Virus record (IMG/VR): IMGVR_UViG_3300026189_000003
Span: 1-64,000 of that record
Source: a virus
Strand: one strand, 5' to 3'
DNA length: 64,000 nt
Shown here: one piece after another, positions 2,130 through 25,222 of the stretch
Layout: every line of letters starts with the position of its first letter
Position numbering within the stretch: position 1 is the stretch's first letter
Made by a program: the position numbers and the translations under genes
Notes under the pieces: generated by a model
The model's database searches: none
What the model was told of the DNA's origin: nothing
What the model saw: the letters and a program-made list of their open reading frames with translations, nothing else

Positions 2130-3182
2130 ATGCAAACAGTAACAATAAGAAAAGGATCCTTTGAAGATGCTTCAATCAACGATGTATCTTTTAAGTTGAT
2201 CAAAGACTACCACCCATACAAAGCTGGTGGGGGTTTCTTCCTAGTAGATGGTAGGTCGGCTGATACAGGTGAGTTTCCTGCAAAGCCAATTCGTATCAAA
2301 GTAAAAGCACCTAGTGATGCTGAACTGAGCGATGAGCCAATCATCAAGATCAAGAAATCCAAAGAGCCTGTAGAAACAGATGAGCAGGCGATGGTTAGGA
2401 TCAAAGAAAGATTTGATATCCTAACTGAAATGACTGAAGCCACACAAGAAGGCACAGTGAGAGCAATGATAGTTAGTGGCCCTCCAGGTGTAGGTAAATC
2501 CTACGGTGTTGAGGAACAACTAAACAAGTCAGACATCTTCAACAAGATGGCAGATGTTGCTCCCAAGTTTGAAGTGTGCAGAGGTTCTATGTCAGCTATA
2601 GGATTGTATCAAAAACTTTTCAAACTATCTAACAAAGGAAATATCCTTGTGCTAGATGATTGTGATTCGATCTTGTTTGATGATGTTGCACTTAACATTT
2701 TGAAAGCGGCATTGGACAGTTCCAAGAAAAGATATATCAGTTGGAACACTGAGTCCAGAGTGTTGGCAAATGAAGGTGTGCCAGATCGTTTCGAGTTCAA
2801 CGGTTCGGTGATAATGATCACAAACATCAAATTTGATTATGTGAAATCCAAAAAGCTACAAGACCATTTAGCGGCCATCATGAGTAGATGTCACTACCTG
2901 GATCTTACAATGGACACAGTCAGAGACAGAATGCTTAGATGTAAGCAGGTGTTGGCTGAAGGTGACATGATGAGGGACTACAACTTCTCCAAAGAAGAAC
3001 AGGAAGATGTTATGAACTTCATGGTAGAGAACCAAAAAGGTCTTAACGAAATTAGTTTAAGAATGATAACCAAACTTGCTGATCTAAAGAAGATGAGCAA
3101 TGATTGGAAAAAACTTGCAAGAGTGACTTGCATGAAACGAGGTTCGAGTCCTGCTTACGCAGGCTCAACAGGTTCCTTCTAA
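2130..3182 (+). CDS. AAA+ family ATPase
   Basis: Walker A GPPGVGKS, Walker B LVLDDCD, sensor MITN, Arg finger AIMSR. Confidence 0.9.
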   Translation: MQTVTIRKGSFEDASINDVSFKLIKDYHPYKAGGGFFLVDGRSADTGEFPAKPIRIKVKAPSDAELSDEPIIKIKKSKEPVETDEQAMVRIKERFDILTEMTEATQEGTVRAMIVSGPPGVGKSYGVEEQLNKSDIFNKMADVAPKFEVCRGSMSAIGLYQKLFKLSNKGNILVLDDCDSILFDDVALNILKAALDSSKKRYISWNTESRVLANEGVPDRFEFNGSVIMITNIKFDYVKSKKLQDHLAAIMSRCHYLDLTMDTVRDRMLRCKQVLAEGDMMRDYNFSKEEQEDVMNFMVENQKGLNEISLRMITKLADLKKMSNDWKKLARVTCMKRGSSPAYAGSTGSF

Positions 3183-3986: not shown

Positions 3987-4642
3987 TGATGCCCAATCCA
4001 AATCCTATAGTTAGAGTCTTAATGACTCTAACTGTATTCCTGGTAGTGTTGGGTTACACTGTTGCGAGTGCAAATGAACCTGTAGCCAAGTTAACGACCA
4101 AAGCTACAGTTATCCTAAATCAACAGTTGGACAGTAACAAGGTCAACAGTAAGCTACATGATGCAGTTACTTGTCTAGCAGAGAACATATACTTTGAAGC
4201 TAGAGCAGAAAGCTACAGTGGTAAAGCCGCAGTAGGTAATGTGACTAGAAACAGAGTTGAAAGTGGTAGCTTCCCAAATACATATTGTGAAGTTGTGCAA
4301 CAGGGTCCGGTTAGAGAAAGCTGGAAGACCAAAAGCAATCCAGACCTAACTCCTGTTTACTATCCCATCAAGCACAAGTGTCACTTCAGTTGGTACTGTG
4401 ATGGAGAGAAAGATGTCATCTGGGCCAACTATGAGAAGACAGGACAGACCATTGAAATGAATGCAAAGGCTTGGACAGACAGTGTACAGTTGGCAATAAT
4501 GATTGCTGGTGCTACTGAACTACAGATCAAAGACAATACCAAAGGTAGCTTATACTATTACAACCATAACCTAGTCACACCATATTGGGTAGATCATTTT
4601 GATTACATGGGTGTACTGGGCAACCACACATTCATGAGGTAA
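3986..4642 (+). CDS. Cell wall hydrolase, SleB/Hydrolase_2 family
   Basis: CLAENIYFEAR, VGNVTRNRV, FPNTYCEVV, FSWYCDG, PYW, GNHTF; N-terminal signal/TM segment. Confidence 0.92.
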   Translation: MMPNPNPIVRVLMTLTVFLVVLGYTVASANEPVAKLTTKATVILNQQLDSNKVNSKLHDAVTCLAENIYFEARAESYSGKAAVGNVTRNRVESGSFPNTYCEVVQQGPVRESWKTKSNPDLTPVYYPIKHKCHFSWYCDGEKDVIWANYEKTGQTIEMNAKAWTDSVQLAIMIAGATELQIKDNTKGSLYYYNHNLVTPYWVDHFDYMGVLGNHTFMR

Positions 4643-4649
4643 CAATACA

Positions 4650-4871
4650 ATGCGTTTACTAGGTCGAATCATATGCAGTCTAGGACTGATATTCTTTGCT
4701 ACAATTGTACTAACATTTGCTGTACACTTGGGCACCGCAGTTAGCACACTACCTGTATTCAACTACTGTGTGAGCATTGTGTTCCTAGTACTAGCACTTT
4801 GGCTATACAAACTAGCATACCTACAGCTGAAGCCCAAAGAGGTAACAGCTGACATCCCATCTGAGACTTAA
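4650..4871 (+). CDS. Small two-TM membrane protein
   Basis: Two hydrophobic helices; SD GAGG. Confidence 0.6.
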   Translation: MRLLGRIICSLGLIFFATIVLTFAVHLGTAVSTLPVFNYCVSIVFLVLALWLYKLAYLQLKPKEVTADIPSET

Positions 4872-5524
4872 GAAAAAATAATTTCCACCACCGACCGTGT
4901 ATATAGATCTGGGCTTGGAAACCTGGGAAGTGGGCTAACGCAAAAATAAAAAATAATGGGCTATTATATAGGCGGGGCGGTAAACACAGTTGATATGCAA
5001 GAGAGGATAAATGCGAAGCATTATATTAAACTAAGGCGTAGACTTGGTTTAGAACACAAAAACAATTGCGGTACGGAAACTTGGTATTGAAAAAAATTAC
5101 GCAGTAGAAAAATGTGGGCAAACGTATAGAGGTGGTGTGGTTAATACTAAAGCAAAGGTGTATGAAAACCTACCATGTGTGCCATCATGCCCCGGCGGCT
5201 AAACGAAAGATGTCAGGATACTGGGCGAACATATGGAAGAATATGTACCACCACCCTATGAATGCTGTGGCTATCAACACATTTTTAATCATAATGAATA
5301 TTTATAATGGATCGCCGGCCTAGCCAATGCTGTGAGCACAGCGAACACTGATGCACATTGCCCTAAATTTATGCACTTTAAAGCTAAAATAACACACGTA
5401 CAGGGTGTGTCAATTGCTATGCTGTCTACATTAGCACCAACAGAACACCAACAGTACATCATGCTATTACAAGCTAGTACACAGGCGGTCCAATTGTGTG
5501 CATATCAAAACACTAGATTCCAGA

Positions 5525-5550
5525 TTGACCACCATGTATGACGCTTAAAA
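5525..5550 (+). repeat. Dispersed motif TTGACC-N4-TGTATGACGCTTAAAA, copy 1
   Basis: Identical outside N4 to 10709-10734. Confidence 0.8.
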
Positions 5551-5692
5551 GCAGTTTAACCAGGCTCTTTGACACCTTCTCTACTGTGGCACGTTGGTTG
5601 TTCTGTGAGCGATAGCGAACAGTAAGCCCGTGTAAAATAATAACAGTAACAATAACTGTCTGAATTTTATCAGTCGCATACAAAAATACGTC

Positions 5693-6167
5693 TAATACCC
5701 GCCTTATTACTAACATAGTACAAAAAAATGTACTAATACACATACATATAGCTATAAACACCCCGTAAAAAAAGTACTAATACACATACAATACTATAAA
5801 AACACCCTGTTTATACCCCTTAAAAAAAATTTGACACATACTAATACTAGCAAAAACCCGCTAAAACACTGTATTTTATAAAAAAAATGTACTAATACAC
5901 ATACAAAACACTATAAAACCCGCTAAAAAACAGCTATTTTTATAAAAAAACACATACATTTTGCTAAAAAACCACTAAAAAACAGCTATTTTTACTAAAA
6001 AATTGTGCAAATACACTAAAAAAAGTACTAATACACATACAAAATAGCATAAAAACCCCTAAAAAACCCACTAAAACAGCTATTTTTAGTAAAAAAACGT
6101 GCTAATACACATACAAAACAGTAAAAAAAAGGTGCAAATACACTATAAAACAGCTTATAAACACCGG
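5693..6167. repeat. Non-coding iteron-like repeat array with A-tracts (putative origin/packaging site)
   Basis: TACTAATACACATACA at 5731, 5775, 5890, 6026 and (1 mismatch) 6100; GTGCAAATACACTA at 6005 and 6132; CTAAAA(AA)CAGCTATTTTT three times. Confidence 0.85.
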
Positions 6168-6196
6168 TCAAACCGGTATATTTGGGTCAAAGTCTG

Positions 6197-6225
6197 TTGA
6201 CAGAATGCAATTTCAGTGTTATTAT
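6197..6225 (+). promoter_or_regulatory. sigma70-type promoter
   Basis: TTGACA-17-TATTAT with TG extension. Confidence 0.75.
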
Positions 6226-6253
6226 AAAGACTTAATTTACATAAAAGGAAAAA

Positions 6254-6478
6254 ATGGCATATTCAATAGACATAGATGAACGTCCGACCACTGCAAAAGT
6301 TCACTGCACAGATAACGATCAGTGGGTTGAAGCAGAGATACTCAGTCAAAATCAAAAAAACATTGTGATGATAATACAAAAAACTGTTAGATTGTCTTTT
6401 CATGAACACGACAGAAAGCCCGGCACATGGATTGCTAACAGCAATGGATATGAATTTGTTTACAAACAACCAAAATGA
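6254..6478 (+). CDS. Hypothetical phage protein
   Basis: ORF after promoter and SD AAGGA. Confidence 0.75.
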   Translation: MAYSIDIDERPTTAKVHCTDNDQWVEAEILSQNQKNIVMIIQKTVRLSFHEHDRKPGTWIANSNGYEFVYKQPK

Positions 6479-6909
6479 GTGAAAAAACAAAAGCACTGTT
6501 GGACAAATTAAACAAGATAACCGAAGATCCTGACAAGCCCAAATGGCAACCACCTCCACCAAGCATACCTGACACAAACAGAATGTGGAGATCTACCATT
6601 AATCCTGAAACTTACACATTGCCCAAAAGCTATGACAACGACACATGGACCAAAGTAGAAGAAGATGGTGATGTTGATGAGTGGATTGCGTATGACAGAG
6701 TGTACGGAGGCCTAGGAGGACAAAAATTAATAAACAAAGATGGCACAGACTATCAAGGCAAGTTGACCAGAAAACAGATATTGGTACCAAAAAGAGATGG
6801 CACCGGTAACATGAAACAGTATGTAACTGTCACGGCAGATGGCAGATGGTTTAACAATAGTGGTATGCCCATAGAAAAGCCGTCTAATATTGAGGAAGAT
6901 GCTGAATAA
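6475..6909 (+). CDS. Hypothetical phage protein
   Basis: ATGA coupling. Confidence 0.75.
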   Translation: MSEKTKALLDKLNKITEDPDKPKWQPPPPSIPDTNRMWRSTINPETYTLPKSYDNDTWTKVEEDGDVDEWIAYDRVYGGLGGQKLINKDGTDYQGKLTRKQILVPKRDGTGNMKQYVTVTADGRWFNNSGMPIEKPSNIEEDAE

Positions 6910-6957
6910 GTTAAAACGTAATATAAATGGACATTTACAGCTCTAAATAATTAAGCT

Positions 6958-7494
6958 ATGCAGAAATTTACTGATTTACTTGCTGTCGTAGGATTTTTAT
7001 TCATATTGTTATTTGCCGGCAAAGGCAGTGCAAACGAACAGCAATACAAAGAAGATTTTGTAAAACACATAAAGAGTTGTCATGCTTATTATTACAACCA
7101 ACTTCATCCTAACTCTGAATTTGTATTACCAGTACAACTTGCGGTCGGTGTTGCTATACACGAAAGCGATTGGGGTAATTCAAGATTTGCACAAGAAGGC
7201 TACAACTACTATGGCATCAGATCATCAAGCAATGATCCAGATGAGTACATGGTACCTAAGTATGCACCAAACGTCAAGGTAGCAAAATATCTACACAATT
7301 GCAATAGCACTTTTGCATTTATTGATCTTATGATTGGCAGTGGACACTATGCCGAAGCAATGAATATAATCAAGAACAGTGATAAAGATCATTTACCATG
7401 GATAGAAATTTTAAGATCGATCAATGTTAAGTATAGTGTTTCAGAAAACTGGCCAGGAAAAATAGCTTTTATAATTAAATCTTTAGAGACCTAA
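6958..7494 (+). CDS. Glucosaminidase (GH73/Bax-like) peptidoglycan hydrolase
   Basis: AIHESDWGNSRFAQEGYNYYGI and YS motifs; signal peptide. Confidence 0.85.
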   Translation: MQKFTDLLAVVGFLFILLFAGKGSANEQQYKEDFVKHIKSCHAYYYNQLHPNSEFVLPVQLAVGVAIHESDWGNSRFAQEGYNYYGIRSSSNDPDEYMVPKYAPNVKVAKYLHNCNSTFAFIDLMIGSGHYAEAMNIIKNSDKDHLPWIEILRSINVKYSVSENWPGKIAFIIKSLET

Positions 7495-8215
7495 TAATTA
7501 AATCAGCAATAACAGAGTTACCTTTTTTATCAACATGGTAACCTTCATCGATAATATATTTTTTAAGATCTATTTCTTTTTCAATAACTAATTTGTTATC
7601 TAGATTGTCAGGCACAAAAAGATCGTTAAGCCAAAAAATATGCAATACTTTTTTGTTAATTGATTTAACATACATATCACAATATTCAATAGTTTGATTA
7701 TACTTGTTGAACATCAGCGGATGAAGTCTTTCATGCTCTAACCAATATTTTACTCTGGCAATTATTTGGTCTTTTTTAAGATTACTTTTCCTTTGTATTT
7801 CACCAAACATATGATCTATCAGATCTGACTGTTCATCGTTTGCTAGTCTTTCTGCCATTCCTACTGTTAAATGATAATAACTTTGTGTGTTGTCCCATAA
7901 CTGAATATAGTTGTCATACACGTCATGGTCTCTGGTAATTTTTTGATACTTTGCTTTATCAGAACACCACATTAACATTCCTCTGTCCGGTGTAGTGTGT
8001 TGTATGACATACACATCAGGATCGTATTTGCCATGTATATATTTTAATGTGTCTGGGTAGTTGACCCAACTAGCACCTTCACGGCCTGCATTAATAACTT
8101 GATTTTCAGTGTTGTTTTCAGATAAATTATAGTGTACTATATACGGATAAGTATTAGTGTGAGAAAGATTATGACCATGAGTCCAACTGCAACCTATAAA
8201 CGATATTTTTAACAT
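7475..8215 (-). CDS. SGNH/GDSL-like hydrolase paralog 1
   Basis: FIGCSWT block I, INAGREG block II, C-terminal DEGYH. Confidence 0.7.
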   Translation of the reverse strand: MLKISFIGCSWTHGHNLSHTNTYPYIVHYNLSENNTENQVINAGREGASWVNYPDTLKYIHGKYDPDVYVIQHTTPDRGMLMWCSDKAKYQKITRDHDVYDNYIQLWDNTQSYYHLTVGMAERLANDEQSDLIDHMFGEIQRKSNLKKDQIIARVKYWLEHERLHPLMFNKYNQTIEYCDMYVKSINKKVLHIFWLNDLFVPDNLDNKLVIEKEIDLKKYIIDEGYHVDKKGNSVIADLIIRSLKI

Positions 8216-9395
8216 GAACGATAAATTACCTCAAAATTTTTGTATTCTACCATGGACTTCTTTAGAAGTTCAACCAAATGGAACTGTAAAACCATGTTGT
8301 ATGTATAACAGTACATTAAAAAAACCAAATGGTCAAGAGTATTTAATACAAAAAGATGATATTGATGATATCACTAATAGTGATGAAATGCAAACAATAC
8401 GTAAACGTTTTCTAGCAGGAACACAACCACGTGGTTGCCATAGATGCTGGATGGAAGAACTATCTGGTAAAAAATCCAAAAGAGTTAGAGATAATCAAAA
8501 ATATCAACATCATATAAAAGATAAAGTAATATTTGCAGAACAACAAAAACCAAGATACTTAGATTTAAAGCTAGGTAATATATGCAATTTGAAATGCAGA
8601 ATATGTTCTCCACAATATAGTTCCAGATGGATAACTGAACAAAAAAGATATGATAAGATCGACGGGATTGAAAACGATTATTCAAGACTTGATTGGCCAG
8701 AAAAATCAGAACATTTTTGGGAAACAATTGAAAGTGTTATGCCACACCTAGAACATTTAGATTTTACAGGTGGTGAACCGTTTATGATAAAAGAACATTT
8801 TGCATTGCTTGAAAAAATTATAGATAGAGGATATGCAAAAAATATTTCATTGCATTATAACTCAAACGGAACACAGTTACCATTACCGGCACTTAAAAAC
8901 ATTTGGCCTAATTTCAAATATGTTGATGTGCATTTCTCAATTGATGGTATAAACAAACAGTTTGAATATCAAAGACATCCAGCTAAATGGACAGATGCTA
9001 TATCTAATATGAGTGTGTTTAAAGAATATCAAACACCAACTTTTGATTTATGTATATGTCACACTGTTAATATTTTTAATGTTTTTTATCTTCCGGAATT
9101 TTTAGATTGGACTAAAAAGTTTGGCATGAAAGTTTATCTTAACAATTTACATGAACCAAAACACTACAACATCACTTGCCTACCATATGGTGTTAAATTA
9201 ATGATTAAACAGAAACTTGAAGAATACAAAGGAATGAATTTAAGCAATGTAGTCAACTTCATGATGTCTGGCGATAATGTACAACATTTCAAACAGTTCC
9301 AACATCATACTACGAGAACTGATATCGTTAGACACGAAACATTTGACAAAGTCTTTCCTGAGTTATCAACAATGTTTCAAGGAGTAATAGCATGA
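8214..9395 (+). CDS. Radical SAM protein with N-terminal twitch/SPASM-like Cys domain
   Basis: CNLKCRIC, GGEP; N-terminal CILPW..PCC..CHRCW. Confidence 0.92.
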   Translation: MNDKLPQNFCILPWTSLEVQPNGTVKPCCMYNSTLKKPNGQEYLIQKDDIDDITNSDEMQTIRKRFLAGTQPRGCHRCWMEELSGKKSKRVRDNQKYQHHIKDKVIFAEQQKPRYLDLKLGNICNLKCRICSPQYSSRWITEQKRYDKIDGIENDYSRLDWPEKSEHFWETIESVMPHLEHLDFTGGEPFMIKEHFALLEKIIDRGYAKNISLHYNSNGTQLPLPALKNIWPNFKYVDVHFSIDGINKQFEYQRHPAKWTDAISNMSVFKEYQTPTFDLCICHTVNIFNVFYLPEFLDWTKKFGMKVYLNNLHEPKHYNITCLPYGVKLMIKQKLEEYKGMNLSNVVNFMMSGDNVQHFKQFQHHTTRTDIVRHETFDKVFPELSTMFQGVIA

Positions 9396-9577
9396 AATCA
9401 GCAGAATTAAATTCAGCTAATATGCATAAAGAATCTGACAGCTATTGTGCCAATTGTGGACGCCCAGAACATAGTAATCCTTTATGGGAACAAATGTTGG
9501 ATGGAGAAAATAAACCAGTAATGATTGAAGTTTGTAAATACTTTCGGAAACAAGTTGAAGGAAAAAAAGATGATTAA
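9392..9577 (+). CDS. Small Cys/His protein
   Basis: CANC..H..C; ATGA coupling. Confidence 0.65.
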   Translation: MKSAELNSANMHKESDSYCANCGRPEHSNPLWEQMLDGENKPVMIEVCKYFRKQVEGKKDD

Positions 9578-9674
9578 ATGGTTGAAAAATTTATGGTATG
9601 AGTATAAAGTACATAGAGCATATAAGAAGAAAATAAAAGAACTCAAAAAAAGAGATCCTTTTATTTACAAATAG
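9570..9674 (+). CDS. Small basic protein (34 aa, ...KKRDPFIYK)
   Basis: MIKWLKNLWYEYKVHRAYKKKIKELKKRDPFIYK fills the gap before rpmG. Confidence 0.7.
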   Translation: MIKWLKNLWYEYKVHRAYKKKIKELKKRDPFIYK

Positions 9675-9682
9675 GATAATTT

Positions 9683-9886
9683 ATGGCAAAAAGCTCAAAG
9701 AAAACATTTGAATTAAAAATGTTAGTACCAGAAGAAAACAAACCAGATACAGGAACAAGATACTATGTTCGTAAGCCTACTAAAGGTGAAAAAAGAACAA
9801 TGAAAATAAGACAAAGAAAATACGATCCTGTAATTAGAAAACACGTTTGGTTTGTAGAAAAGAAAATGCCAAAGCACTCGGCCTAA
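9683..9886 (+). CDS. rpmG: 50S ribosomal protein L33 (bL33), zinc-independent form
   Basis: TGTRYY..K and RKYDPVIRKHVWFVEKK L33 signature; no CxxC. Confidence 0.9.
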   Translation: MAKSSKKTFELKMLVPEENKPDTGTRYYVRKPTKGEKRTMKIRQRKYDPVIRKHVWFVEKKMPKHSA

Positions 9887-9899
9887 TAAATAAAGCATT

Positions 9900-10175
9900 A
9901 TGAAACTATTAATTACAATTTTATTTTTATTTGGTTTTGTAGCAGTAGCTACTAACACCAATGCAGGTCACGTTAGAGGTAATGGTACTTGTACAGATGA
10001 TATCAAACACTGGAAAAATATGGAGCATAAAAGAACTGATGCACCATTACACGAACAAAGCAAAAGGCAGTTTGAAAAAGCATTAGGTAAAAAACTAGCC
10101 GCAAAACCAGATGAGTGTGAAGCTTTAATGGAAGAAGCACTTAGAATGATTCGTAAACCTTACCCAACTGAATAA
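9900..10175 (+). CDS. Secreted small helical protein
   Basis: Signal peptide, two Cys. Confidence 0.7.
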   Translation: MKLLITILFLFGFVAVATNTNAGHVRGNGTCTDDIKHWKNMEHKRTDAPLHEQSKRQFEKALGKKLAAKPDECEALMEEALRMIRKPYPTE

Positions 10176-10178
10176 TAG

Positions 10179-10340
10179 ATGATACGTTTATTTTTAATAC
10201 TCTTAATATCTATAACGTTAACTAATTGTGCAAAACCAAAACAAGAAGGCAAATGGACACAAACTACAAACAATACATTGTTAAGAACAGCGAGTTGTAT
10301 AGTTGTACCAGGAATGCCTTATTGCGTTTTGAACAAGTAA
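10179..10340 (+). CDS. Small lipoprotein (53 aa)
   Basis: MIRLFLILLISITLTNC lipobox; not in ORF track. Confidence 0.65.
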   Translation: MIRLFLILLISITLTNCAKPKQEGKWTQTTNNTLLRTASCIVVPGMPYCVLNK

Positions 10341-10341
10341 C

Positions 10342-10665
10342 ATGAAGATCCCACCATATGATGAGGATCTAATGTGGGGCGACAGTTGGGCATATGATGA
10401 CTGTCGTTTAGAGAACAATGGTATTATTCCTCAGACATACGGATACAATAAAAAATTCAAACACGATGTTGAAGTACAGCACCCTGAACAATTAGGAAGA
10501 TGCATCGATTGGTGTATTGATAATTGTAAACACAAATGGGGCTGGTATCATGATAGTTTGCCTCTACCAAGAGTATCATTAGAGAACCACGGAATGGAAT
10601 CACGTTCCTTTTTAAGTTTCTCGAACAAAAAAGAAGCTTTCATGTTTAAAGTAGCTTGTCTGTAA
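10342..10665 (+). CDS. Hypothetical phage protein
   Basis: ORF directly after the lipoprotein. Confidence 0.75.
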   Translation: MKIPPYDEDLMWGDSWAYDDCRLENNGIIPQTYGYNKKFKHDVEVQHPEQLGRCIDWCIDNCKHKWGWYHDSLPLPRVSLENHGMESRSFLSFSNKKEAFMFKVACL

Positions 10666-10708
10666 AAACCCCTAAAATACGGGGGTACTAACACCCCAGG
10701 TGGTGGCT

Positions 10709-10734
10709 TTGACCCCACTGTATGACGCTTAAAA
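10709..10734 (+). repeat. Dispersed motif TTGACC-N4-TGTATGACGCTTAAAA, copy 2
   Basis: Matches 5525-5550; lies in a GC-rich structured intergenic region. Confidence 0.8.
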
Positions 10735-10789
10735 TGAATCTTTTTTTGCTTGTTTTTAATAAATTTGCTAGTTCAGTAAATAATAGCAA

Positions 10790-11821
10790 ATGTTTTCATT
10801 AATCAACATACCTTACATTCATACACTTGAAATAGAGCCAACTACATCTTGCAATGCAGGTTGTCCGTACTGTGGTAGGCACGTTCAAGGCACTAGTGAT
10901 GTTATTAAAGATTTGTCAACTGAACATTTACCAGTACACCTATTACAAAAAATAAAAGAACAATTTGATTTGTACCAAGGAGCAAAAAATGTTGGAGTAT
11001 GGTATTGTGGTAACTATGGTGATTCATTAATGCATCCAGAATTTGAACAGCTATTCAAGTACTCAGCTGAAAACTTTAAAGCAGTAGGTGTACATACTAA
11101 TGGCGGAGCTCGTGCAACTAACTTTTGGGAAAACTTAGGCAAAGTTTGTAAACAGTATGGTAATGCATCAATAACATTTTGTATAGATGGACTTGAAGAT
11201 ACAAATCATTTATACAGAAGAAAAGTAAAATGGAAAACATTAATGTCTAATGTTAAAGCCTTTATTAGTAACGGTGGATATGCCAATTGGAAAATGATAG
11301 TATTTGATCATAATAAGCATCAGGTTGAAGAAGCCAAAGCATTATCAAACAGTTTAGGCTTTCATGACTTCTCTCCGGAAATAAGCACTAGAGAAGTTTT
11401 ACCTAATGAAGAATACAAAGAAGTTAGTGCAGTTGCTAAAAAGAAAACCGAAATACAAATTCAAAAAGCTAAAGAAATAAATCAAACAAAATCAGAACAG
11501 TCTTGTATTTCTTGTAAAGGTATTGAAGCTCACAATATGTATCTAAATTCTAAAGGTAGAATTTGGCCTTGTTGTTATATGTCAGAAGATTATGATTTAA
11601 CAATACAGCGACTAGAAAAGAAAGAACCATGGTTAGCTGAACACTACAAAAATGATTTTAACAATTTTAATACACGTTCTTTGCAAGAAATATTTAATGA
11701 ACCTGCATGGAAAGAAATAACAGATGCTTGGACTACTCGTAAACGTGAGTTAAACAGATGTTGGAAGAGTTGTGCTGATGCTAGATGGAAAGTTTCTAAT
11801 ACTGTAGATTACTTTATGTAA
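10790..11821 (+). CDS. Radical SAM protein with C-terminal SPASM/twitch domain
   Basis: CNAGCPYC, GNYGD, HTNG; C-terminal CK..WPCC..CWKSC. Confidence 0.92.
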   Translation: MFSLINIPYIHTLEIEPTTSCNAGCPYCGRHVQGTSDVIKDLSTEHLPVHLLQKIKEQFDLYQGAKNVGVWYCGNYGDSLMHPEFEQLFKYSAENFKAVGVHTNGGARATNFWENLGKVCKQYGNASITFCIDGLEDTNHLYRRKVKWKTLMSNVKAFISNGGYANWKMIVFDHNKHQVEEAKALSNSLGFHDFSPEISTREVLPNEEYKEVSAVAKKKTEIQIQKAKEINQTKSEQSCISCKGIEAHNMYLNSKGRIWPCCYMSEDYDLTIQRLEKKEPWLAEHYKNDFNNFNTRSLQEIFNEPAWKEITDAWTTRKRELNRCWKSCADARWKVSNTVDYFM

Positions 11822-13029
11822 TTTGGCAGGTCGTGTAATTCTGGAAATATATCACGCCATTTTTCATTTCTTAACTGATCCAATCTTTCAGTTGTTTGAT
11901 ACCACTCTTTAATTTTATGTGTATAGTCTGCTTCATCTAAGAAGTTAATTAATGCCTCATATCTTTTACTTTTGTTTTTAGTATTTGCATTCATCCATTC
12001 TTGAGCTTTACGATATTTTTCTCTTACTTGATCTTTCATGTGTTCTGGTAATATTTGTATTCTTAAATGTGCTGGTGTTAACAATGGATTGATCAAACTA
12101 CCTTCATCTTGTATCCAACCTTTTTTGTACCAATCAATATGAAAATCAGGCACGTGATAACTGTTGAATACATCTAAACAAGTTGCTAAAAAGAAGTAAG
12201 CTCTAGGACAAACTTCAAACATTCTTTTTCTATTTGCTTCTACTTGCTCCCAGTTTTGTCCTGAACGCAAGAATTCTCCTCGTTTATGACTAGCGTCTAA
12301 ACTACCACCAATTTCTATAAACTCAAATTTATCCCATTCCTTCATTACATCAATATCTTTGTAAGTCATTTGACTAAAGTTAGTATTGTATTTTAACTTA
12401 ACATGAAACATTTTTTTCTCAACAAGACGTTTTAGTATTCTATAGTGTTCTTCCATTATTAATGGTTCACCACCTGCAAAATAAATTTCTTCCAGACCAT
12501 CCATGTAAGGCTCTACTTTTTCCCAGAATGTTTTTTCGTCTTTGTAAGGTCTAATAATTTTTTTATGATCAGGTTTACCATACACTTTAGTATGATCCTC
12601 ATACCAGCTTGAACTTAACTCCGGGCCGCACGTTCTACATTTGAAGTTACAAATATTTGAGAATCTAAAATCAATATAAGGTAAATTAACTTTGTCAACA
12701 GATCCATCTTCTTTCGTTGACTCAACAACATCCCAATGATTAGCTAGATGTTTATTTGACCATTGTCTAGTTGTAGAAATATTATTTCTTTCCATTTCCA
12801 TACATCTAGTACATATCTTATTAACTTTACCAGCAAGTAAATCTTTCCTTAATTTTTTTTGCTGTTCACTGTTCCATGCTTGTTCTAGGCTAACGTTTTT
12901 TAAGTTACCCATTGGCATATCACTTGGACTCATACAGCAAGTTAGTATTCTTCCATCTGGCCACGTGTGTAAATGCGTCCACGGAATCATACAAAATGTT
13001 TTTGATTCTAGGGTTTCTTTTTTATTCAT
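11809..13029 (-). CDS. Radical SAM protein with N-terminal twitch domain
   Basis: CNFKCRTC, AGGEP; CMIPW..TCC..CTRC. Confidence 0.92.
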   Translation of the reverse strand: MNKKETLESKTFCMIPWTHLHTWPDGRILTCCMSPSDMPMGNLKNVSLEQAWNSEQQKKLRKDLLAGKVNKICTRCMEMERNNISTTRQWSNKHLANHWDVVESTKEDGSVDKVNLPYIDFRFSNICNFKCRTCGPELSSSWYEDHTKVYGKPDHKKIIRPYKDEKTFWEKVEPYMDGLEEIYFAGGEPLIMEEHYRILKRLVEKKMFHVKLKYNTNFSQMTYKDIDVMKEWDKFEFIEIGGSLDASHKRGEFLRSGQNWEQVEANRKRMFEVCPRAYFFLATCLDVFNSYHVPDFHIDWYKKGWIQDEGSLINPLLTPAHLRIQILPEHMKDQVREKYRKAQEWMNANTKNKSKRYEALINFLDEADYTHKIKEWYQTTERLDQLRNEKWRDIFPELHDLPNYIK

Positions 13030-14035
13030 TTAAATTGTTTAACCAACTGTCAATATGTAAGTTTCTAAATGTATTGCTGTTGTGTTTAATTTTATCAAGA
13101 ATAATTTTGTCATGATATATTTCTTGCCATTCAGTAGGTGTATAATTCATTAGCTTTTCTACTTCTGAGTACATTGCTTCAAATCTTAATTCTTTATCTA
13201 AACTGTCAAAGCTGTGATCATATAATTCTGTGTATGGTTCGAATCCGTGATCTATTAAAAACTGATAACTGTTTTTTGTACCATGTAATATAAAAATTTT
13301 ATTGTATAAAATTGGTTTCCAAACTTTCTCTGTTAAAAATATGCTTGTATCACTATCAATACTTTCGTTAACAATTTCAAATCCAGCATAAGGATATTGC
13401 GTTGGTAATATTTCTTGGTTCTGTCCTGCATCAATTGATTCATTGTCAAAATCCAGTACTAGATCTTCTCCCTGCCAAACACCATTACTAAAATATTTTT
13501 TAGGTAGTTTACCATAACGATTAACCCAACTTATCCATCCATCATCTTGTAAATTGTTTTCATATAATCTATTAACTATTTTAGCTCTGTGTGGTTTAGA
13601 TGCACCATTTAAACAAATAAACTTTTTAACTTTTTCATCTACACTCTTTGGTTGTTTTACTGTTTTGTTTTGTATAACATCTCTAGTTCTTATTAACAAG
13701 CTCAATGGATATGATAATGCTGTTATTGGAACTACTCTTTCTGCTGTACCTTTAAACCAAGTATTGATATTGTCTACTAAATTAACATCTGCCATGACTA
13801 GAAATGTTTGTTCTTTTGGCCAGTTACGAATTGAATCATGCAGTTCGGTTAAAAAGTTATCTTTTTGTAAAAAATGAACCTCACCTTCTAATTCTCTTTT
13901 GATAATAATATTATGTGTGTCTATTTTATCTTGATTGTTTTGTATCCACCATCTTACTTTAGCTAGTCCTTCAGAAACTAGACTTTCACTGTCTATATCA
14001 AATATCTGATTTTCTCTAATCATATTGTTTTCCAT
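13022..14035 (-). CDS. GT-B/GT10-like 'ITEK' protein paralog 1
   Basis: FICLNG..KPHR; FEIVNES..FLTEKVWKPI..GF. Confidence 0.6.
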   Translation of the reverse strand: MENNMIRENQIFDIDSESLVSEGLAKVRWWIQNNQDKIDTHNIIIKRELEGEVHFLQKDNFLTELHDSIRNWPKEQTFLVMADVNLVDNINTWFKGTAERVVPITALSYPLSLLIRTRDVIQNKTVKQPKSVDEKVKKFICLNGASKPHRAKIVNRLYENNLQDDGWISWVNRYGKLPKKYFSNGVWQGEDLVLDFDNESIDAGQNQEILPTQYPYAGFEIVNESIDSDTSIFLTEKVWKPILYNKIFILHGTKNSYQFLIDHGFEPYTELYDHSFDSLDKELRFEAMYSEVEKLMNYTPTEWQEIYHDKIILDKIKHNSNTFRNLHIDSWLNNLNE

Positions 14036-14532
14036 TGTTCTGAGATGTCACTAGTATTTACTGATTTTAACTTGTCTAATCTTTTGGTGTGTCTTCCACC
14101 TTCAAATTTGGTAGTAAAAAATGCTTGTACTAATTGCCAAGCCATATCTTTAGTTACAAAGTCTGCACCCATACATAGAACGTTAATGTTGTTATGCTTA
14201 CGGGCCATTACAACATCTTTTACTGTTCTACAGTTTGCCGCTCTAATATGAGGATATCTATTAGCCGCAATAGTTACACCAAATCCCGAGCCACATATCA
14301 AAATACCATGTGATTGATATTCTAAATCATTTGCTACTTCTTTTACAATGTCTGGATAATCAACTGACTTTTTTTTATCGTATGCACCTACATCTTGTAT
14401 TACACAGATATTAAATTTTGTAATTTCTTCATCTGTATCTGGAACCATAAATTTATAAACGTAATCTTTAAGGTTTACGCCTCTGTGATCACTTCCTATG
14501 GAAACACTATTTTGTTCTATTTTTCTAGCCAT
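14020..14532 (-). CDS. rpiB: Ribose-5-phosphate isomerase B
   Basis: SDHRG, VDYPD, ILICGSGFG, AANR, ARKHNN, FEGGRH. Confidence 0.95.
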   Translation of the reverse strand: MARKIEQNSVSIGSDHRGVNLKDYVYKFMVPDTDEEITKFNICVIQDVGAYDKKKSVDYPDIVKEVANDLEYQSHGILICGSGFGVTIAANRYPHIRAANCRTVKDVVMARKHNNINVLCMGADFVTKDMAWQLVQAFFTTKFEGGRHTKRLDKLKSVNTSDISEQWKTI

Positions 14533-15836
14533 AATAATAACTTATTTAAGTACTCACTTCTATTTAACTTTAAAAAATGCTCTCTATTGTACAACAAAGT
14601 ATCAAATATTTTGTAGTATTCTCTATGCAATCCATCGATGGGCCAATGACATAACCGTTTAATATTTTCTAAAACCATATCGGTTCTTTTAGCACTATCT
14701 GTTTCTCTATCGTAGCTTTCGTTTAAAAATGCCCAATTATTGAAAGTTCTGTATCCGCAATCTTGCAAATAATCTAATGTGCCTCGAGATCCTAAAACTA
14801 CAAAAGGATGTAGTTGTAATATAGGTTGATATACCTTTTCAGTAATAAACAAAGGATCTCCTGGTTGACTATTACTTACTGTTTCGTTAACAATACTGAA
14901 GTATGTATTATAGTAATGTTTAGCTTTCATTCTTCTTTGATTTAAACTTTCGTTTATTGATGATCCATCATGATCAAGAACAATAGGAGTTTTTTGTAAA
15001 AACTCTTCCATTTCTTTTAGTACGTTTTCCTTGTCTTCTCGTTGAGTGAATGTTTCAGTATTGGTTGGAACACCTGGTGTAAAATACCTATTTAAAAAAC
15101 TTATGTAACCAAACTCATCTAGACCTTCTTTGTATAATTGACTAGTTAGATATATTCTGTGTGGTCTTGGATTTGCATTTCTACAAACAAACTTTAATGG
15201 TCTGTGTCTATCCTTGTCGATTAACTTTTCGTCGACTAATTCATCTTCTACTTTTATTTCACGCATTCTTTTTGTATTAAAATACATTCTATCAGTTTCG
15301 AGCCAATAGTTTAGCTCAAATATATTCAATCCAAATGTTTTTATTTTGCAATCAATCTTTTTCTTTTTACAATAGTATTTGAAGTTTTCTTCAATTCTTA
15401 AATCACCAAATACTAAATGAACTTTCTCTTCAGGTATACCTTTATCACCTAAGGTGTATAGTATGTCATCAATAAATCTTGGCATATCTAGATGAAAGCC
15501 TTCGCTTGGAAACCATAATAATATTTTTACATTATCTTCTATTCGTATTGCTCTTAGAAAGTCTTCGTCAATGTAATGAAACACATTTTCATAAAAGAAA
15601 CTTAGATCAATCCATTCGGGTTGTATATGATACCAAAATGTTTGACTGCTTTTTATTGAATGATCTAAGTTACACTTGTTATACTTTACACCAGCATAAT
15701 CTAGTAATTCTTCTAAGTATTGAAATTTTACATTGCCGTAATTTTTATAATACTTGTCATTTCTTTTCCAATAAGGAATACTGTTTGGCAAGTAACCTTT
15801 ATCTTTGTCATGTGTTTGATATAATAAATTAATCAT
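14517..15836 (-). CDS. GT-B/GT10-like 'ITEK' protein paralog 2
   Basis: FVCRNANPRPHR; FSIVNET..FITEKVYQPI..HPFVVLG..GYRTF. Confidence 0.6.
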   Translation of the reverse strand: MINLLYQTHDKDKGYLPNSIPYWKRNDKYYKNYGNVKFQYLEELLDYAGVKYNKCNLDHSIKSSQTFWYHIQPEWIDLSFFYENVFHYIDEDFLRAIRIEDNVKILLWFPSEGFHLDMPRFIDDILYTLGDKGIPEEKVHLVFGDLRIEENFKYYCKKKKIDCKIKTFGLNIFELNYWLETDRMYFNTKRMREIKVEDELVDEKLIDKDRHRPLKFVCRNANPRPHRIYLTSQLYKEGLDEFGYISFLNRYFTPGVPTNTETFTQREDKENVLKEMEEFLQKTPIVLDHDGSSINESLNQRRMKAKHYYNTYFSIVNETVSNSQPGDPLFITEKVYQPILQLHPFVVLGSRGTLDYLQDCGYRTFNNWAFLNESYDRETDSAKRTDMVLENIKRLCHWPIDGLHREYYKIFDTLLYNREHFLKLNRSEYLNKLLLWLEK

Positions 15837-16368
15837 TGTATACTGTGGTGTGTACTATTGTGTTTTCTAATTGTGTTTTGTTATAAGTTTCAATGTATGC
15901 TAAATCTAATAATGCTGTTACACCTAGTACTTTTGCTCCGGAGCTTTCACAAAGTTTTTTACTTGCTAATAAACTTCCGCCAGTTGCAACAAGATCGTCC
16001 GCTATTATAACACGACTAGTATGACCTAGTATACCTTTTTGTAGGACTAATGTATTCGATCCATATTCTAAATTATAGCTTTCTTTGTATAGTTCGCCTG
16101 GATATTTTGAGTCTTCTTTCCTAATCATTACAAATGGAATCATTAACTCTTTAGCTAATGCACTACCAATAACAAACCCACGACTTTCAACACCAGCAAC
16201 ATGAGTTGGGTAACTAAAGTTTGAATCGCTAGTAATTTTTTTAGCTAATTCGTCAATAACTATTCCAAATACTTCACTAGCAAATAAACTATTCAAATCG
16301 TAAAAATTAATTCCTTCTTTAGGATAATCTGGCACTGTTCTAATATGTTCTAGTATTTTAACTTGCAT
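15829..16368 (-). CDS. apt: Adenine phosphoribosyltransferase
   Basis: PDYPKEGINFYD, GVESRGF, YNLEYG, PRPP motif IIADDLVATGGS. Confidence 0.93.
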   Translation of the reverse strand: MQVKILEHIRTVPDYPKEGINFYDLNSLFASEVFGIVIDELAKKITSDSNFSYPTHVAGVESRGFVIGSALAKELMIPFVMIRKEDSKYPGELYKESYNLEYGSNTLVLQKGILGHTSRVIIADDLVATGGSLLASKKLCESSGAKVLGVTALLDLAYIETYNKTQLENTIVHTTVYND

Positions 16369-17170
16369 CTGTAATCCATCTCCTTACTACTTGTTCTGCA
16401 AATGCTTGATGACATTCTGATGACGGGTGGCCCAGCATTCTTTTAGTACCTTCTTTCATAATCCAACCTTGCGGAGGAGTGTTTGTATGATCGTCTGATA
16501 AAACTCCAGCATAACCATTATCAATGCCCCATTCGGCAATACCGCCTTTTTCTATACAACCAGGATATCCGGGTCTTCCGCCTTTGTGATCATATAGCCA
16601 CCATGTTTTCCAATCGATTGAATCAAACCAAAACTTTAATTCTTCATTTTCATTAAGTAGTTTGCCTTCGATGTGTTTTTTAAATTCTCTTTTCCATAAA
16701 AATATTTTATACTTGACATTCATGTTTTCGCACAATGTTTGAAAGTTCTTAATCAGATAAAGTGTTTTTAGAAGTTGATATACTTCGCTGTAACAATACT
16801 TACGATAATTTTTTAATGGTGCACCTATTCTTGGTTCTGCATCTTCAAGCCATTCAAATGTGCCTGTACTTTTTAACCATGTGTAAGTTTCTTTAGCCTG
16901 TACAGCCACGTTATGTGTTTCACTAGTCCAATTACTAATAACTTCATCTGTAATTAATTCATATCTACTAACACCTGAAATTTGCAGTATAGCAAAGTCT
17001 GGATTGTTTTCAATAATTGCTCTAGTAATGTTTCTAATATTCATTTCGTTACCACCACCCCCTTCGGCAACGTTGATTATGTCATGCTGATCTTTATATT
17101 TTTCTTTTAGATAATTAGCCCAACTATCTTCTGCTTCTGTAAAACTACAACCTGATGTTACTATTTTCAT
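16358..17170 (-). CDS. SGNH-like paralog 2
   Basis: SGCSFT, NVAEGGGGN, C-terminal GHPS..H. Confidence 0.7.
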   Translation of the reverse strand: MKIVTSGCSFTEAEDSWANYLKEKYKDQHDIINVAEGGGGNEMNIRNITRAIIENNPDFAILQISGVSRYELITDEVISNWTSETHNVAVQAKETYTWLKSTGTFEWLEDAEPRIGAPLKNYRKYCYSEVYQLLKTLYLIKNFQTLCENMNVKYKIFLWKREFKKHIEGKLLNENEELKFWFDSIDWKTWWLYDHKGGRPGYPGCIEKGGIAEWGIDNGYAGVLSDDHTNTPPQGWIMKEGTKRMLGHPSSECHQAFAEQVVRRWITDAS

Positions 17171-18111
17171 TTTTCTAAACTCTTAATTATTTTTTTTCTA
17201 GTATTTAATGCATTTTTCTTTAACGTATTAACATTATGTTTACACAGCTTTTCAAAGCTATCATAATATAAATCTTGATTGTTTAATTTAAACATACAAT
17301 TAACAAACTTTTGCAATCTTTCTTTATGATTAGTAATCATATCATAGTTCTCGTCGACTAAATTACTAAAAGTTTTGTAACCTTTTTCTCTTAACTTGTT
17401 CATAAAGAATGGTGTTGATAAAACTGCGAAAGGGTGCATATTAGCTATTGCTCTATAAGTTTTTTCTGTTGGATGAAACTCTTGATTGCCATCAAAATGT
17501 GTTTCTGAAATAATACTAAAGTTCGTTAGTTGATATACCATTCGATCATATGGATAACCTATATAATGATTATCTTCAATTTTAATTGTATCTAGTTGAT
17601 CCCCACCGTCGACACCAAACATGGTCCAGGCAAATCTAGCATTAAAGTTTTCATTTGCTATAAGTTTATCTAGTAATGGTTTTCTATTTCCTTTATTAGC
17701 TTTACCTCCTAGTAATAAAAATCTTAATTTACTAAGATTTGTTTCTTGTATTTCGCATTCTTCTTTAACAAATAGTCTATGATAAGCATCTAATTCAAAT
17801 TGATCAATTATAATATTTTTTCTATTTGGTGCAAAATGTTTAAAGCTACCTAAACTAAAAATAGTAATTTCTTGTGTTGATTGTAGACTGTCGAATTGTG
17901 TTTTCAAATATTCGTCATGTGTATAAGGATGTTCTCTTATATATGAATAGACAATTGGTTTTGTTATTCCTTCAAAGACAGGTGCCGGTTCACTTGTTGC
18001 AATGTCAACATAGTCAGCTTGTTCCATATCAGTCACATATTCAACAGGAATAAAACGCATGACCGATTCTAAGTCGTAACAATACTTTGGATGTCTATAT
18101 ACTTTTAACAC
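17167..18111 (-). CDS. GT-B/GT10-like 'ITEK' protein paralog 3
   Basis: FSIISETH..PTEKTYRAI..HPF..GYKTF. Confidence 0.6.
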   Translation of the reverse strand: MLKVYRHPKYCYDLESVMRFIPVEYVTDMEQADYVDIATSEPAPVFEGITKPIVYSYIREHPYTHDEYLKTQFDSLQSTQEITIFSLGSFKHFAPNRKNIIIDQFELDAYHRLFVKEECEIQETNLSKLRFLLLGGKANKGNRKPLLDKLIANENFNARFAWTMFGVDGGDQLDTIKIEDNHYIGYPYDRMVYQLTNFSIISETHFDGNQEFHPTEKTYRAIANMHPFAVLSTPFFMNKLREKGYKTFSNLVDENYDMITNHKERLQKFVNCMFKLNNQDLYYDSFEKLCKHNVNTLKKNALNTRKKIIKSLEK

Positions 18112-19012
18112 CTAATCCTCTCTTTACTTTATCAATATCAATATTCATAGCATGACTTCTGTTGTACAATACTTTACGAAAAATAGATGATAACTTTTCA
18201 CTTATAGTTTTAAGATCCAACTGACAAAACTTTTGTAATTCATCTAGTGTGTCATTTTCATAATCAAAAAATTCTGTATACAATTTAAATCCTAAATCCT
18301 GTAAATGTTTATAATACTTTGATTTGTCACCAACTCCGTAATACAAAAATAGTTGGCAATTTAATATTGGCTTCCATGTTTTTTCAGTAAAGAATACGTG
18401 TTCATCTTCATGTGTTTCGTTTATTATATTAAGATAACTGTCTTCATATATTTTTAATGGAATAGATTTATCGTCTTTGTTTAATTCATCTGCTGTTTTG
18501 TCTATATAGTAGTTTTCATATTCTTTTGTTTGTGTACGATATCCATGATCGTAGTTGCCAACTAGACTAACATAACCTTTATCTAATAAAAAGTTTTCTT
18601 TACAAAAATTTACAAAATCAATACGTTTATACTTTATTGCTCCATTGAAACTACAAAAGTGTTTATTTCTATGGTATTTTACTCCAGCAGTGTTGTCTTG
18701 TTTTCTTTGTATTTCCAAAAAATGAAAAGGATAATGCTTAACAGTATTAGCAAATTGCACTTGTTTACAATCTAAATTTGCTGTGATAAATGTTACTTTA
18801 TCTTTGTTTATATGTTGTAATTTTTCTGTAATAGTATCAATAACAGTTTTACCATTGTTCATTACAGGTCCTGGTATATCTGCTTCCCATGGTTCAAATA
18901 TAATAATATCTTGATTATCTACATTATCAAGACCAGGGAGAGGATCATCGCAAAATAGATCTGGACAGTTGTTGCTTGGTGTTGCTTTGTAATATGGGTT
19001 TTCAAATATCAT
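18095..19012 (-). CDS. GT-B/GT10-like 'ITEK' protein paralog 4
   Basis: FCSFNG..KR; LNIINETH..FFTEKTWKPI..GF; start moved to ATG 19012. Confidence 0.6.
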   Translation of the reverse strand: MIFENPYYKATPSNNCPDLFCDDPLPGLDNVDNQDIIIFEPWEADIPGPVMNNGKTVIDTITEKLQHINKDKVTFITANLDCKQVQFANTVKHYPFHFLEIQRKQDNTAGVKYHRNKHFCSFNGAIKYKRIDFVNFCKENFLLDKGYVSLVGNYDHGYRTQTKEYENYYIDKTADELNKDDKSIPLKIYEDSYLNIINETHEDEHVFFTEKTWKPILNCQLFLYYGVGDKSKYYKHLQDLGFKLYTEFFDYENDTLDELQKFCQLDLKTISEKLSSIFRKVLYNRSHAMNIDIDKVKRGLGVKSI

Positions 19013-19013
19013 T

Positions 19014-19130
19014 TTATCCAAATCCTGTCCAGTTCCATGGATCCTCAAATTTGTCTTTTTCTTTTTTGTAAGGCTTTGCTGAAAATCTTATTGCAATTCC
19101 TATTAATATTCCTAGTAATAACCATGTCAT
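19014..19130 (-). CDS. Small membrane peptide (38 aa)
   Basis: MTWLLLGILIGIAIRFSAKPYKKEKDKFEDPWNWTGFG; exactly fills the gap; not in ORF track. Confidence 0.7.
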   Translation of the reverse strand: MTWLLLGILIGIAIRFSAKPYKKEKDKFEDPWNWTGFG

Positions 19131-19131
19131 A

Positions 19132-22634: not shown

Positions 22635-23170
22635 TATTTCATCCAATCGATATATAATAGTTTTCTTGTATCTTTTATTCCTCTACCATCAACTCCGTGC
22701 CACTCTTTACCTGTAAAAGGAAACACACAACACTGATCAAATATATTTGCAACATAGGTTGCATTTTGATAAAAGTCTTTATCTGTATCATGCACGTATA
22801 TTCCTTCATTTGGTTCTTTGTTTAAGAATACTGTCATATGAACTGCTACTTCGTTGTTGTGTGTATGAGCACCCAAGTCCCAACCTTGTGTTTGTTCTGA
22901 ATAAGCAATCTGCGGAGTCATTGAGCCAAATTTTTGTTCAGGGTATATCAGTTGCATACACTCACCAATTGCATTTATATCAATAGCATATTTTTCAAAA
23001 ACATTTCCTTTTAAAAACCATTGAGTACGTTGCTCGTTGGTAATACCTTCCGGCATTTGTTCAGGCAACTTAAAGTCACTATCAAAGAAGAAACCATTCC
23101 ATACTCTCATATTATTATGATCTGGTTTGCTACTTTTTATACTGTCAATGATTTGGTCTGTATTTGTCAT
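22634..23170 (-). CDS. 2OG-Fe(II) oxygenase-like protein
   Basis: LGAHTH (HxD variant), WHGV, distal R; start moved to 23170 (TAATG overlap). Confidence 0.7.
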   Translation of the reverse strand: MTNTDQIIDSIKSSKPDHNNMRVWNGFFFDSDFKLPEQMPEGITNEQRTQWFLKGNVFEKYAIDINAIGECMQLIYPEQKFGSMTPQIAYSEQTQGWDLGAHTHNNEVAVHMTVFLNKEPNEGIYVHDTDKDFYQNATYVANIFDQCCVFPFTGKEWHGVDGRGIKDTRKLLYIDWMK

Positions 23171-23328: not shown

Positions 23329-23357
23329 TTAAGTTCCTTTTTTATTGATATTATATA

Positions 23358-23696: not shown

Positions 23697-23697
23697 T

Positions 23698-25221: not shown

Positions 25222-25222
25222 A

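Follow-up and report, generated by a model that had tools for sequence, protein, structure and literature searches.

A conserved repeat array on phased A-tracts with near-complete exclusion of GA/TC in a marine jumbo phage

The GA/TC-poor array and its helical phasing

Why would a 475-bp non-coding stretch of phage DNA that uses all four bases (A239 C96 G31 T109) almost completely avoid one dinucleotide step? The stretch occupies positions 5693-6167 of the window analysed here, which is the first 64 kb of a 107,640-bp viral contig (G000) whose two ends both lie inside ORFs. The first-pass annotation had read one GA, in TTGACA at 5831, and no TC in this stretch, and our count confirms this, the sole GA lying at 5833-5834 within TTGACA 5831-5836. 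The depletion also holds against composition-matched shuffles: 37.7±4.7 occurrences of GA plus TC are expected after mononucleotide shuffling, and none of 10,000 shuffles fell below 20. Both steps are affected (GA, 1 observed and 15.6 expected; TC, 0 and 22), and no dinucleotide class other than GA/TC (1 against 38 expected) is depleted, the remaining nine being near expectation. The longest gaps without GA/TC in the 107.6-kb contig, of 335 and 142 bp, both fall within the array, and the next measures 92 bp. Across the contig, GA and TC have an observed/expected ratio of 0.94, and the intergenic region 67412-68207 is not depleted (85 observed, 94 expected). When the A-tracts and iteron boxes of the array were masked, the remaining 255 nt still contained 1 GA/TC where 28 are expected; repeat ancestry therefore does not explain the depletion.

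The array and its motifs are as follows.

5693-6167, no strand assigned: GA/TC-free, A-tract-phased repeat array (dinucleotide counts, shuffles, phasing)
5731-5746, plus strand: iteron copy 1, TACTAATACACATACA, preceded by A7 (motif search)
5775-5790, plus strand: iteron copy 2 (motif search)
5890-5905, plus strand: iteron copy 3 (motif search)
6026-6041, plus strand: iteron copy 4 (motif search)
6100-6115, plus strand: iteron copy 5, TGCTAATACACATACA (motif search)
6005-6016, with a second copy at 6132-6143, plus strand: variant iteron GTGCAAATACAC
5834 and 5950: degenerate iteron copies ACACATAC
5753-5764, with more copies at 5795-5807 and 6048-6059, plus strand: box 2, TATAAACACCCC
5852, 5915, 5966 and 6051: AAACCCNCTAAAA boxes related to box 2
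5927-5940, also 5979-5992 and 6073-6086, no strand assigned: imperfect palindrome AAAACAGCTATTTT
6163-6177, plus strand: ACCGGT-CAA-ACCGGT at the array end, where GA and TC reappear; in the window and its relative L193 only

Five 16-mers had been described, each after an A-tract. A tract of A7-8 indeed precedes every one of them, but only four are exact copies of TACTAATACACATACA (5731, 5775, 5890, 6026), the one at 6100 being the variant TGCTAATACACATACA. The three imperfect palindromes (5927, 5979, 6073) and the two-copy motif GTGCAAATACAC(TA) (6005 and 6132) are present as described. The iterons, counted as five full, two variant and two degenerate copies, all have the same orientation and are spaced in whole helical turns. 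Box 1 reads RCAYATACAAA, with the form CTAATACACATACAAA and the variant GCAAATACAC in the window lineage, and the consensus of box 2 is TATAAAC(A)CCCC. The motif copies occur nowhere else in the 107.6-kb contig, which makes the array single-copy. The ACCGGT-CAA-ACCGGT element at its end is a possible hairpin or operator.

Sixteen A-tracts of A5 or longer and 23 of A4 or longer lie in the array. The 16 tracts are phased at 10.5 bp (R=0.79, P<0.001), as are the motif copies, with a Rayleigh R of 0.85 in the window and 0.91 in the relative L194. In a contig-wide scan for A-tract phasing, the array reached z=16.2 at a best period of 10.5, followed by a next best value of 7.7 and a median of 1.35. 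A period of 10.5 rather than 11 indicates helical phasing and argues against descent from an 11-nt unit. The arrays of the relatives L187 and L190 have a period of ~21 bp, equal to two helical turns, and those of L188 and L189 show no significant phasing. Phased A-tract curved DNA is characterized by tracts of 4-6 bp or more that recur at about 10.5 bp over several turns, and the array in the window shows all of these features. Because its motif copies and its A-tracts are both phased at 10.5 bp, we predict that the array is intrinsically curved double-stranded DNA with all sites on one face. The earlier reading of the closely spaced A-tracts as bent DNA is thus borne out by their phase.

Conservation of the array and upkeep of the avoidance

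According to CheckV, the contig covers ~29% of a genome. Its baseplate wedge protein has ~42% identity to the counterpart in jumbo phage PA5oct, the T4-type late promoter NTAAATA is ~27-fold enriched upstream of its genes, AGGAG ribosome-binding sites precede them, and its relatives are marine metagenomic contigs with sizes of up to 328 kb. These features identify the contig as part of a marine jumbo phage of the T4 superfamily, which appears to be lytic and T4-like and has only distant relatives in culture. The contig encodes radical-SAM cassettes and a giant structural protein of 3817 aa, as described for pelagimyophages (PMC7029224).

Two further observations concern the gene content and late transcription of this phage. 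An unusual auxiliary block in the window (8214-27174, 9683-9886 and 14020-16368) encodes several radical-SAM/SPASM proteins, RpiB, a phosphoribosyltransferase and a homologue of ribosomal protein L33 (Pfam E=2.9e-7). In at least 10 genes of the contig, NTAAATA starts exactly 12 nt before the ATG (e.g. 59149-59892 on the minus strand, 91254, 92288, 95343, 96480 and 96749), a spacing that suggests leaderless or near-leaderless late mRNAs.

Relatives were recovered as independent metagenome contigs via a 22-nt stretch of conserved sequence upstream of the array, and further searches added L041, L040, L174 and the 328-kb genome G003, which is complete (100%) and assembles as a circle with a 75-bp overlap. 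Blastn of positions 5000-7000 against 50,697 phage records returned no match, and scanning IMG/VR for the exact iteron 16-mer gave single chance matches only. The two-copy iteron pattern found only chance, microsatellite-like matches in public collections (giant-virus contigs and one Oscillospiraceae MAG), and a 16-nt block of the upstream region, also scanned in public collections, matched only two already-known relatives.

Two other contigs came to our attention. The IMG/VR contig L037 (106,233 bp) has a GA/TC-poor cluster of CTAATACACATACA-like and CCTAATAT motifs at about 130-440, near a contig end, but its flanks showed no homology, and this apparently unrelated contig was set aside. The unrelated phage contig L150 contains at 12460-12700 a 13-nt tandem array (TTTGTTTACACTT) with ~250 bp free of GA/TC, which illustrates that such voids can also arise from simple tandem repeats.

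Homologous arrays are present in six lineages: the window clade (window, L193 and L194), L189, L188, the L187/L190/L192 clade, L174 and G003. Their occurrence in independent contigs and in a complete genome disposes of the concern that the array could be an assembly artefact. All are depleted in GA/TC, with z-scores from −4 to −7.7.

L193 array: GA+TC 0 observed, 36 expected
L194 array: 1 observed, 34 expected
L189 array: 1 observed, 21 expected
L188 array: 4 observed, 33 expected
L190 array: 3 observed, 20 expected
L187 array: 4 observed, 23 expected
G003 array: 2 observed, 17 expected
L174 array: 8 observed, 23 expected

Of all 200-bp windows in the 328-kb G003 genome, the one at the array is poorest in GA/TC. 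Six of the seven TC in L174 fall at one fixed repeat position (TCTA, mostly TCTAATAC) inside the iteron; since this lineage tolerates TC there, the exclusion is strong but not absolute. Masking of A-tracts and conserved boxes across the arrays, relatives included, left remainders with observed/expected counts of, for example, 1/28, 1/25, 1/16, 3/24, 3/14 and 2/12. Boxes 1 and 2 are kept in the six lineages while the spacers diverge, and box 2 is conserved in L188, G003 and L174. The palindrome AAAACAGCTATTTT is limited to the window lineage and absent from the others.

Compared to the window, the array carries 21 substitutions in L193 and 26 in L194, none of which created a GA or TC. The same types of mutation placed at random would create 5.6 and 7.1, respectively (P=0.0006 and 0.0014). 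Within the A-tracts of close relatives, A-to-T and A-to-C changes occur, and A-to-G is seen only where the next base is C. Because no substitution created GA/TC (P≈0.001), this comparison indicates that the avoidance is actively maintained and not inherited from a lucky repeat unit. A mutational origin would be the converse explanation, namely that a TC-specific cytosine deaminase acting on both strands converted TC to TT and GA to AA in unconstrained spacer DNA. Both substitutions observed at such sites fit this idea, the GA at 5833 being AA in L193 and a TC of L189 being TT in the window, as do the high A and low G contents expected from G-to-A conversion. Yet the boxes and their helical phasing are conserved, the array borders are sharp, the other large intergenic gap is not depleted, and GA and TC are close to expectation genome-wide. 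We consider a mere mutational footprint highly improbable.

Genomic setting and possible function of the array

In every lineage, the array is preceded by a conserved region of ~820 nt.

4872-5692 (~820 nt), plus strand: conserved non-coding region preceding the array (comparison with relatives)
5525-5550, with a second copy at 10709-10734, plus strand: 26-nt box TTGACCACCATGTATGACGCTTAAAA (TTGACCNCNNTGTATGACGCTTAAAA), both copies non-coding

This region is ~95% identical among the window, L193 and L194, which makes it better conserved than the flanking ORF 4650-4871, and it has invariant blocks in common with the distant relatives L187, L188, L189, L190 and L192. It contains internally duplicated boxes (GGAAACYTGG ... 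TATAGRSGKGG) and GAGC-loop-GCGAAC hairpins; on the plus strand, local hairpins have loops of the GNRA and GAA types. The core of the 26-nt box, which we take to be loosely boxA-like, is kept in all relatives. In G003, the conserved region begins directly after an intrinsic terminator. A protein-coding function was ruled out by stops in all six frames in tblastx. An Rfam search of positions 4000-7000 on both strands (E≤1) gave no match, a tRNA search found none, and a global RNA fold was unsupported (MFE z-scores +1.3 and +0.8), with an alifold analysis suggesting one long-range helix backed by 3 covarying pairs only. The region may represent a new phage non-coding RNA or DNA element. Together with the array it makes up 1.3 kb of conserved non-coding DNA in an abundant group of marine jumbo phages.

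The position behind this region raises the question of whether the array acts in RNA, where it would form the unstructured tail of an upstream non-coding RNA, rich in A/C and poor in G, and serve as Rho-loading zone, protein sponge or decoy. The plus strand of the arrays does have such a composition in all lineages (A 50%, C 20%, G 6.5%), no terminator separates the array from the upstream region with its GNRA- and GAA-loop hairpins on the plus strand, and the box CGCTTAAAA before the array presumably resembles lambda boxA. However, phasing A-tracts and motifs at 10.5 bp would be meaningless in RNA, and the loss of both GA and TC from one strand would need two separate RNA constraints. The upstream region, moreover, has neither a thermodynamic fold signal (z +1.3) nor an Rfam match, and UC, a preferred contact of Rho, is the very dinucleotide that is missing. 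A role at the RNA level is thus unlikely in our view. GA and TC are reverse complements, and since both are missing, the cause must act on the duplex or on both strands; taken together with the helical phasing at 10.5 bp, this indicates an element that works at the DNA level.

Downstream of the array, the following features are found.

6197-6225, plus strand: strong sigma70-type promoter, TTGACA, 17-nt spacer, TATTAT, with TG before the second hexamer (11/12 matches)
6254-6478, plus strand: 74-aa ORF, conserved neighbour downstream of the array (orthologues in relatives)

The array had been placed at the border between early genes and the rest of the window, which is roughly the case: sigma70-type TTGACA promoters lie at genes 1110, 2130, 3300, 3606 and 6254, and T4-type late NTAAATA motifs occur from ~6943. 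The sigma70-driven genes upstream of the array include those for an AAA protein, a cell-wall hydrolase and a holin-like protein. Orthologues of the 74-aa ORF are located downstream of the array in L041, L187, L188, L189, L194, L190 and L193. Its AF2 model (pLDDT 82.8) is a small six-stranded beta-barrel without significant match in the PDB (best Foldseek E-value 0.14; best VIA Z 4.7), and the sub-significant structural matches are generic SH3/Tudor/Sm-like barrels. The protein is a candidate array binder. Directly after the array, a radical-SAM (radical-SAM/SPASM) gene is inserted in L194, L189 and L187/L041 and absent in the window (6167-6254), so that a variable radical-SAM region borders on the array. 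In L194, L189 and G003, a late promoter stands in place of the sigma70 promoter downstream of the array. Since the upstream block is constant while the downstream promoter type and first gene vary, the array is linked to the upstream non-coding block and not to a given promoter or gene.

These surroundings bear on a possible architectural or regulatory role, in which curved DNA with several copies of a regulator site would activate, repress or insulate the downstream unit at the early/late border. Fewer than 100 bp separate the end of the array from a promoter and gene start in every lineage. The array lies between the sigma70-driven genes and the first late promoters, and is followed by a sigma70 TTGACA-17-TAnnnT promoter in the window, L193, L187 and L190, or by a late TAAATAC motif and then ATG in L194, L189 and G003 (L194 and L189 also have a Shine-Dalgarno sequence). 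Phased A-tracts in front of promoters are classically known to activate transcription, and curved upstream activating sequences likewise have 10.5-bp-phased A-tracts immediately upstream of near-consensus sigma70 promoters. In contrast to these sequences, the array is ~5 times longer, 475 bp far exceeding known upstream activating bends, and it has conserved boxes outside the A-tracts. Further, the promoter class and first gene behind it are not conserved, radical-SAM insertions follow it in some relatives, its link is to the upstream block rather than to a particular promoter, and regulation gives no reason for the exclusion of GA/TC. On balance, such a role in transcription architecture is a real possibility, nearly as likely as the origin function discussed below.

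A more specific transcriptional proposal, that the repeats are tandem phage-specific promoters or crippled late-promoter decoys built from CTAATACACATACA, a 4-6 nt spacer and (T/C)ATAAA, seems quite improbable to us. The hexamer (T/C)ATAAA does follow four of the five full iterons at 4-6 nt, with TAAAAA after the fifth, and resembles the phage late promoter NTAAATA. Nevertheless, the motif is found nowhere else upstream of contig genes, the final T/TA that is conserved in sigma70 and late promoters is missing from the hexamer, and the spacing between the two boxes varies in G003 (6-10 nt).

Repeated boxes on bent DNA could also be bound by a small terminase subunit, in which case the array would be a pac site or genome terminus, as had been suggested in the first-pass annotation. 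Phased A-tracts with repeated boxes resemble pacL/pacR of phage SPP1, and the contigs of several relatives end within a few kb of the array. Short-read assembly, though, is expected to break contigs near repeats, the contig itself ends within ORFs, and G003 closes as a circle. Instead of lying within or beside the terminase genes, the array is ~91 kb away from the large terminase gene (96.7-98.4 kb), and the distance in G003 is ~88 kb. Since the gene is thus ~90 kb off in the contig as well as in a complete relative, packaging is disfavoured, and we regard it as very unlikely. More generally, parC of plasmid R1 and SPP1 pacL/pacR are helix-phased repeats on curved DNA that wrap a protein oligomer and sometimes overlap a promoter. 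The array is like them in its helix-phased repeats on curved DNA; unlike them, it has no ParM/ParR-type or terminase genes nearby, and its phage is apparently lytic and T4-like.

Our preferred reading, which is tentative, is that the array serves as a single-copy site for protein binding on curved DNA and comes closest to an iteron-type replication origin. It would be a cis-acting double-stranded DNA element present once per genome, at which a sequence-specific protein may bind the direct repeats RCAYATACAAA (CTAATACACATACAAA here) and TATAAAC(A)CCCC. With the box copies on one face of the A-tract-curved DNA, a wrapped protein-DNA complex could form, and the array plus the ~820-nt upstream region would then most resemble an iteron-type origin or unwinding site. 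Ongoing selection keeps the GA/TC step out on both strands, conceivably because an enzyme that must be barred from this site targets TC where a strand is exposed, or GA in duplex DNA. Iterons, curvature, single copy and a long conserved non-coding flank make an origin role plausible. Like the iteron origins of the plasmids R6K, RK2 and pSC101, lambda ori and T4 oriE, the array is an AT-rich, bent, single cis locus of short direct repeats arranged in helical turns, and its repeats have the common orientation and whole-turn spacing typical of iteron origins.

Other features fit an origin less well. The array is 73% AT, but its low nearest-neighbour stability only reaches the 97.5th percentile, and it is not the least stable sequence in the contig. 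The array differs from iteron origins in having no recognised Rep or initiator gene: the neighbouring genes gave no match to Rep, DnaA or helicase-loader families, and the AAA protein (2130-3182) has weak DnaC/clamp-loader similarity only. GC skew in the complete relative G003 is dominated by transcription and shows no origin-like inflection. Lambda and R6K iterons contain GA/TC, and we know of no iteron-type origin that excludes a dinucleotide. The array has no sequence similarity to these origins. It does not match the evenly spaced 12-nt repeats of T4 oriE at the syntenic gene 5 or repEA-repEB location, and in contrast to oriE, which is annotated inside gene 5, it is intergenic, beside hydrolase and holin-like genes, and has a different motif. 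Evenly spaced iterons and early-promoter dependence are described for oriE, which makes it a loose precedent, the role of its iterons being itself unproven, and initiation in T4-type phages is largely R-loop and recombination-dependent (PMC3016281).

Possible causes of the avoidance and its significance

The avoidance had been proposed to keep the array free of a sequence-specific DNA modification or to protect it from a host defence enzyme. Its strand symmetry fits such a DNA-level cause, but the deazaguanine version of the idea failed. Enzymes of such two-base specificity are known: the DpdA of Pseudomonas phage iggy places dPreQ0 on at least 97% of GA sites (PMC10484667), practically all 5'-GA-3' steps of a DNA duplex can be substrates of phage DpdA, and the hypermodification context in CAjan is GA/GGC (PMC10484667, PMC7544227). 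A GA/TC-free island would escape such modification on both strands. Unlike iggy and CAjan, the phage studied here has neither DpdA/TGT (PF01702) nor QueC (PF06508) in its contig, which is itself only ~29% of a genome; DpdA (PF01702) was not found in five relatives either, including one genome that is 100% complete. GA-specific deazaguanine modification is hence unsupported, and the combination of phage-encoded DpdA with preQ0 synthesis genes that would accompany a DpdA-modification-free island was not found. Nor are GA/TC-containing restriction sites protected in this phage: GATC and GANTC are not avoided genome-wide, and GA/TC-containing 6-mer palindromes are avoided as much as others (MWU p=0.98 and 0.54), so that restriction-type palindrome avoidance gives no sign of protection. 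Tblastn with DenB (EndoIV), MotA, AsiA and Ndd of T4 detected no homologue in the contig, a weak test at ~29% of a genome.

TC is the preferred context of several enzymes that act on single-stranded DNA, namely T4 EndoIV, DddA/APOBEC-type deaminases and the DarT of Thermus (TNTC). The array might be imagined as a zone from which selection removes TC on both strands, because it becomes single-stranded or has to remain unmodified, and that shields an origin or control region from a dinucleotide-specific enzyme, a reading we hold to be rather unlikely. Candidate enzymes would be a TC-specific single-strand DNA deaminase, a DarT-like ADP-ribosyltransferase or an EndoIV-like T|C nuclease; GA/TC-directed DNA modification by the many uncharacterised radical-SAM enzymes of the phage is a further candidate.

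Iteron arrays and curved DNA are already familiar. We found no description of an element with sharp borders that keeps a single dinucleotide step out of both strands, is conserved across deeply diverged genomes and is maintained against mutation. If the shielding explanation were true, a local island of dinucleotide exclusion would here be described for the first time in a phage genome. Should the exclusion reflect escape from a two-base enzyme, such as a deaminase, an ADP-ribosyltransferase, a nickase or a base-exchange modifier, it would bring to light conflicts, of phage with host or of phage with self, that have so far stayed hidden, and local dinucleotide voids could serve as a computational signature for essential cis-elements in uncultured phages.

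The search for avoided sites also yielded an observation on other motifs. RCATGY is fully avoided in G000 and G003, with ACATGT occurring 0 times (18.5 and 23.5 expected, respectively) as does GCATGC (4.3 and 12.8 expected). GCTAGC is nearly absent, with 1 occurrence where 9 (G000) and 17 (G003) are expected, and GCGC has an observed/expected ratio of 0.23 in G000. The avoidance of RCATGY, GCTAGC and GCGC probably represents the footprints of host restriction systems.
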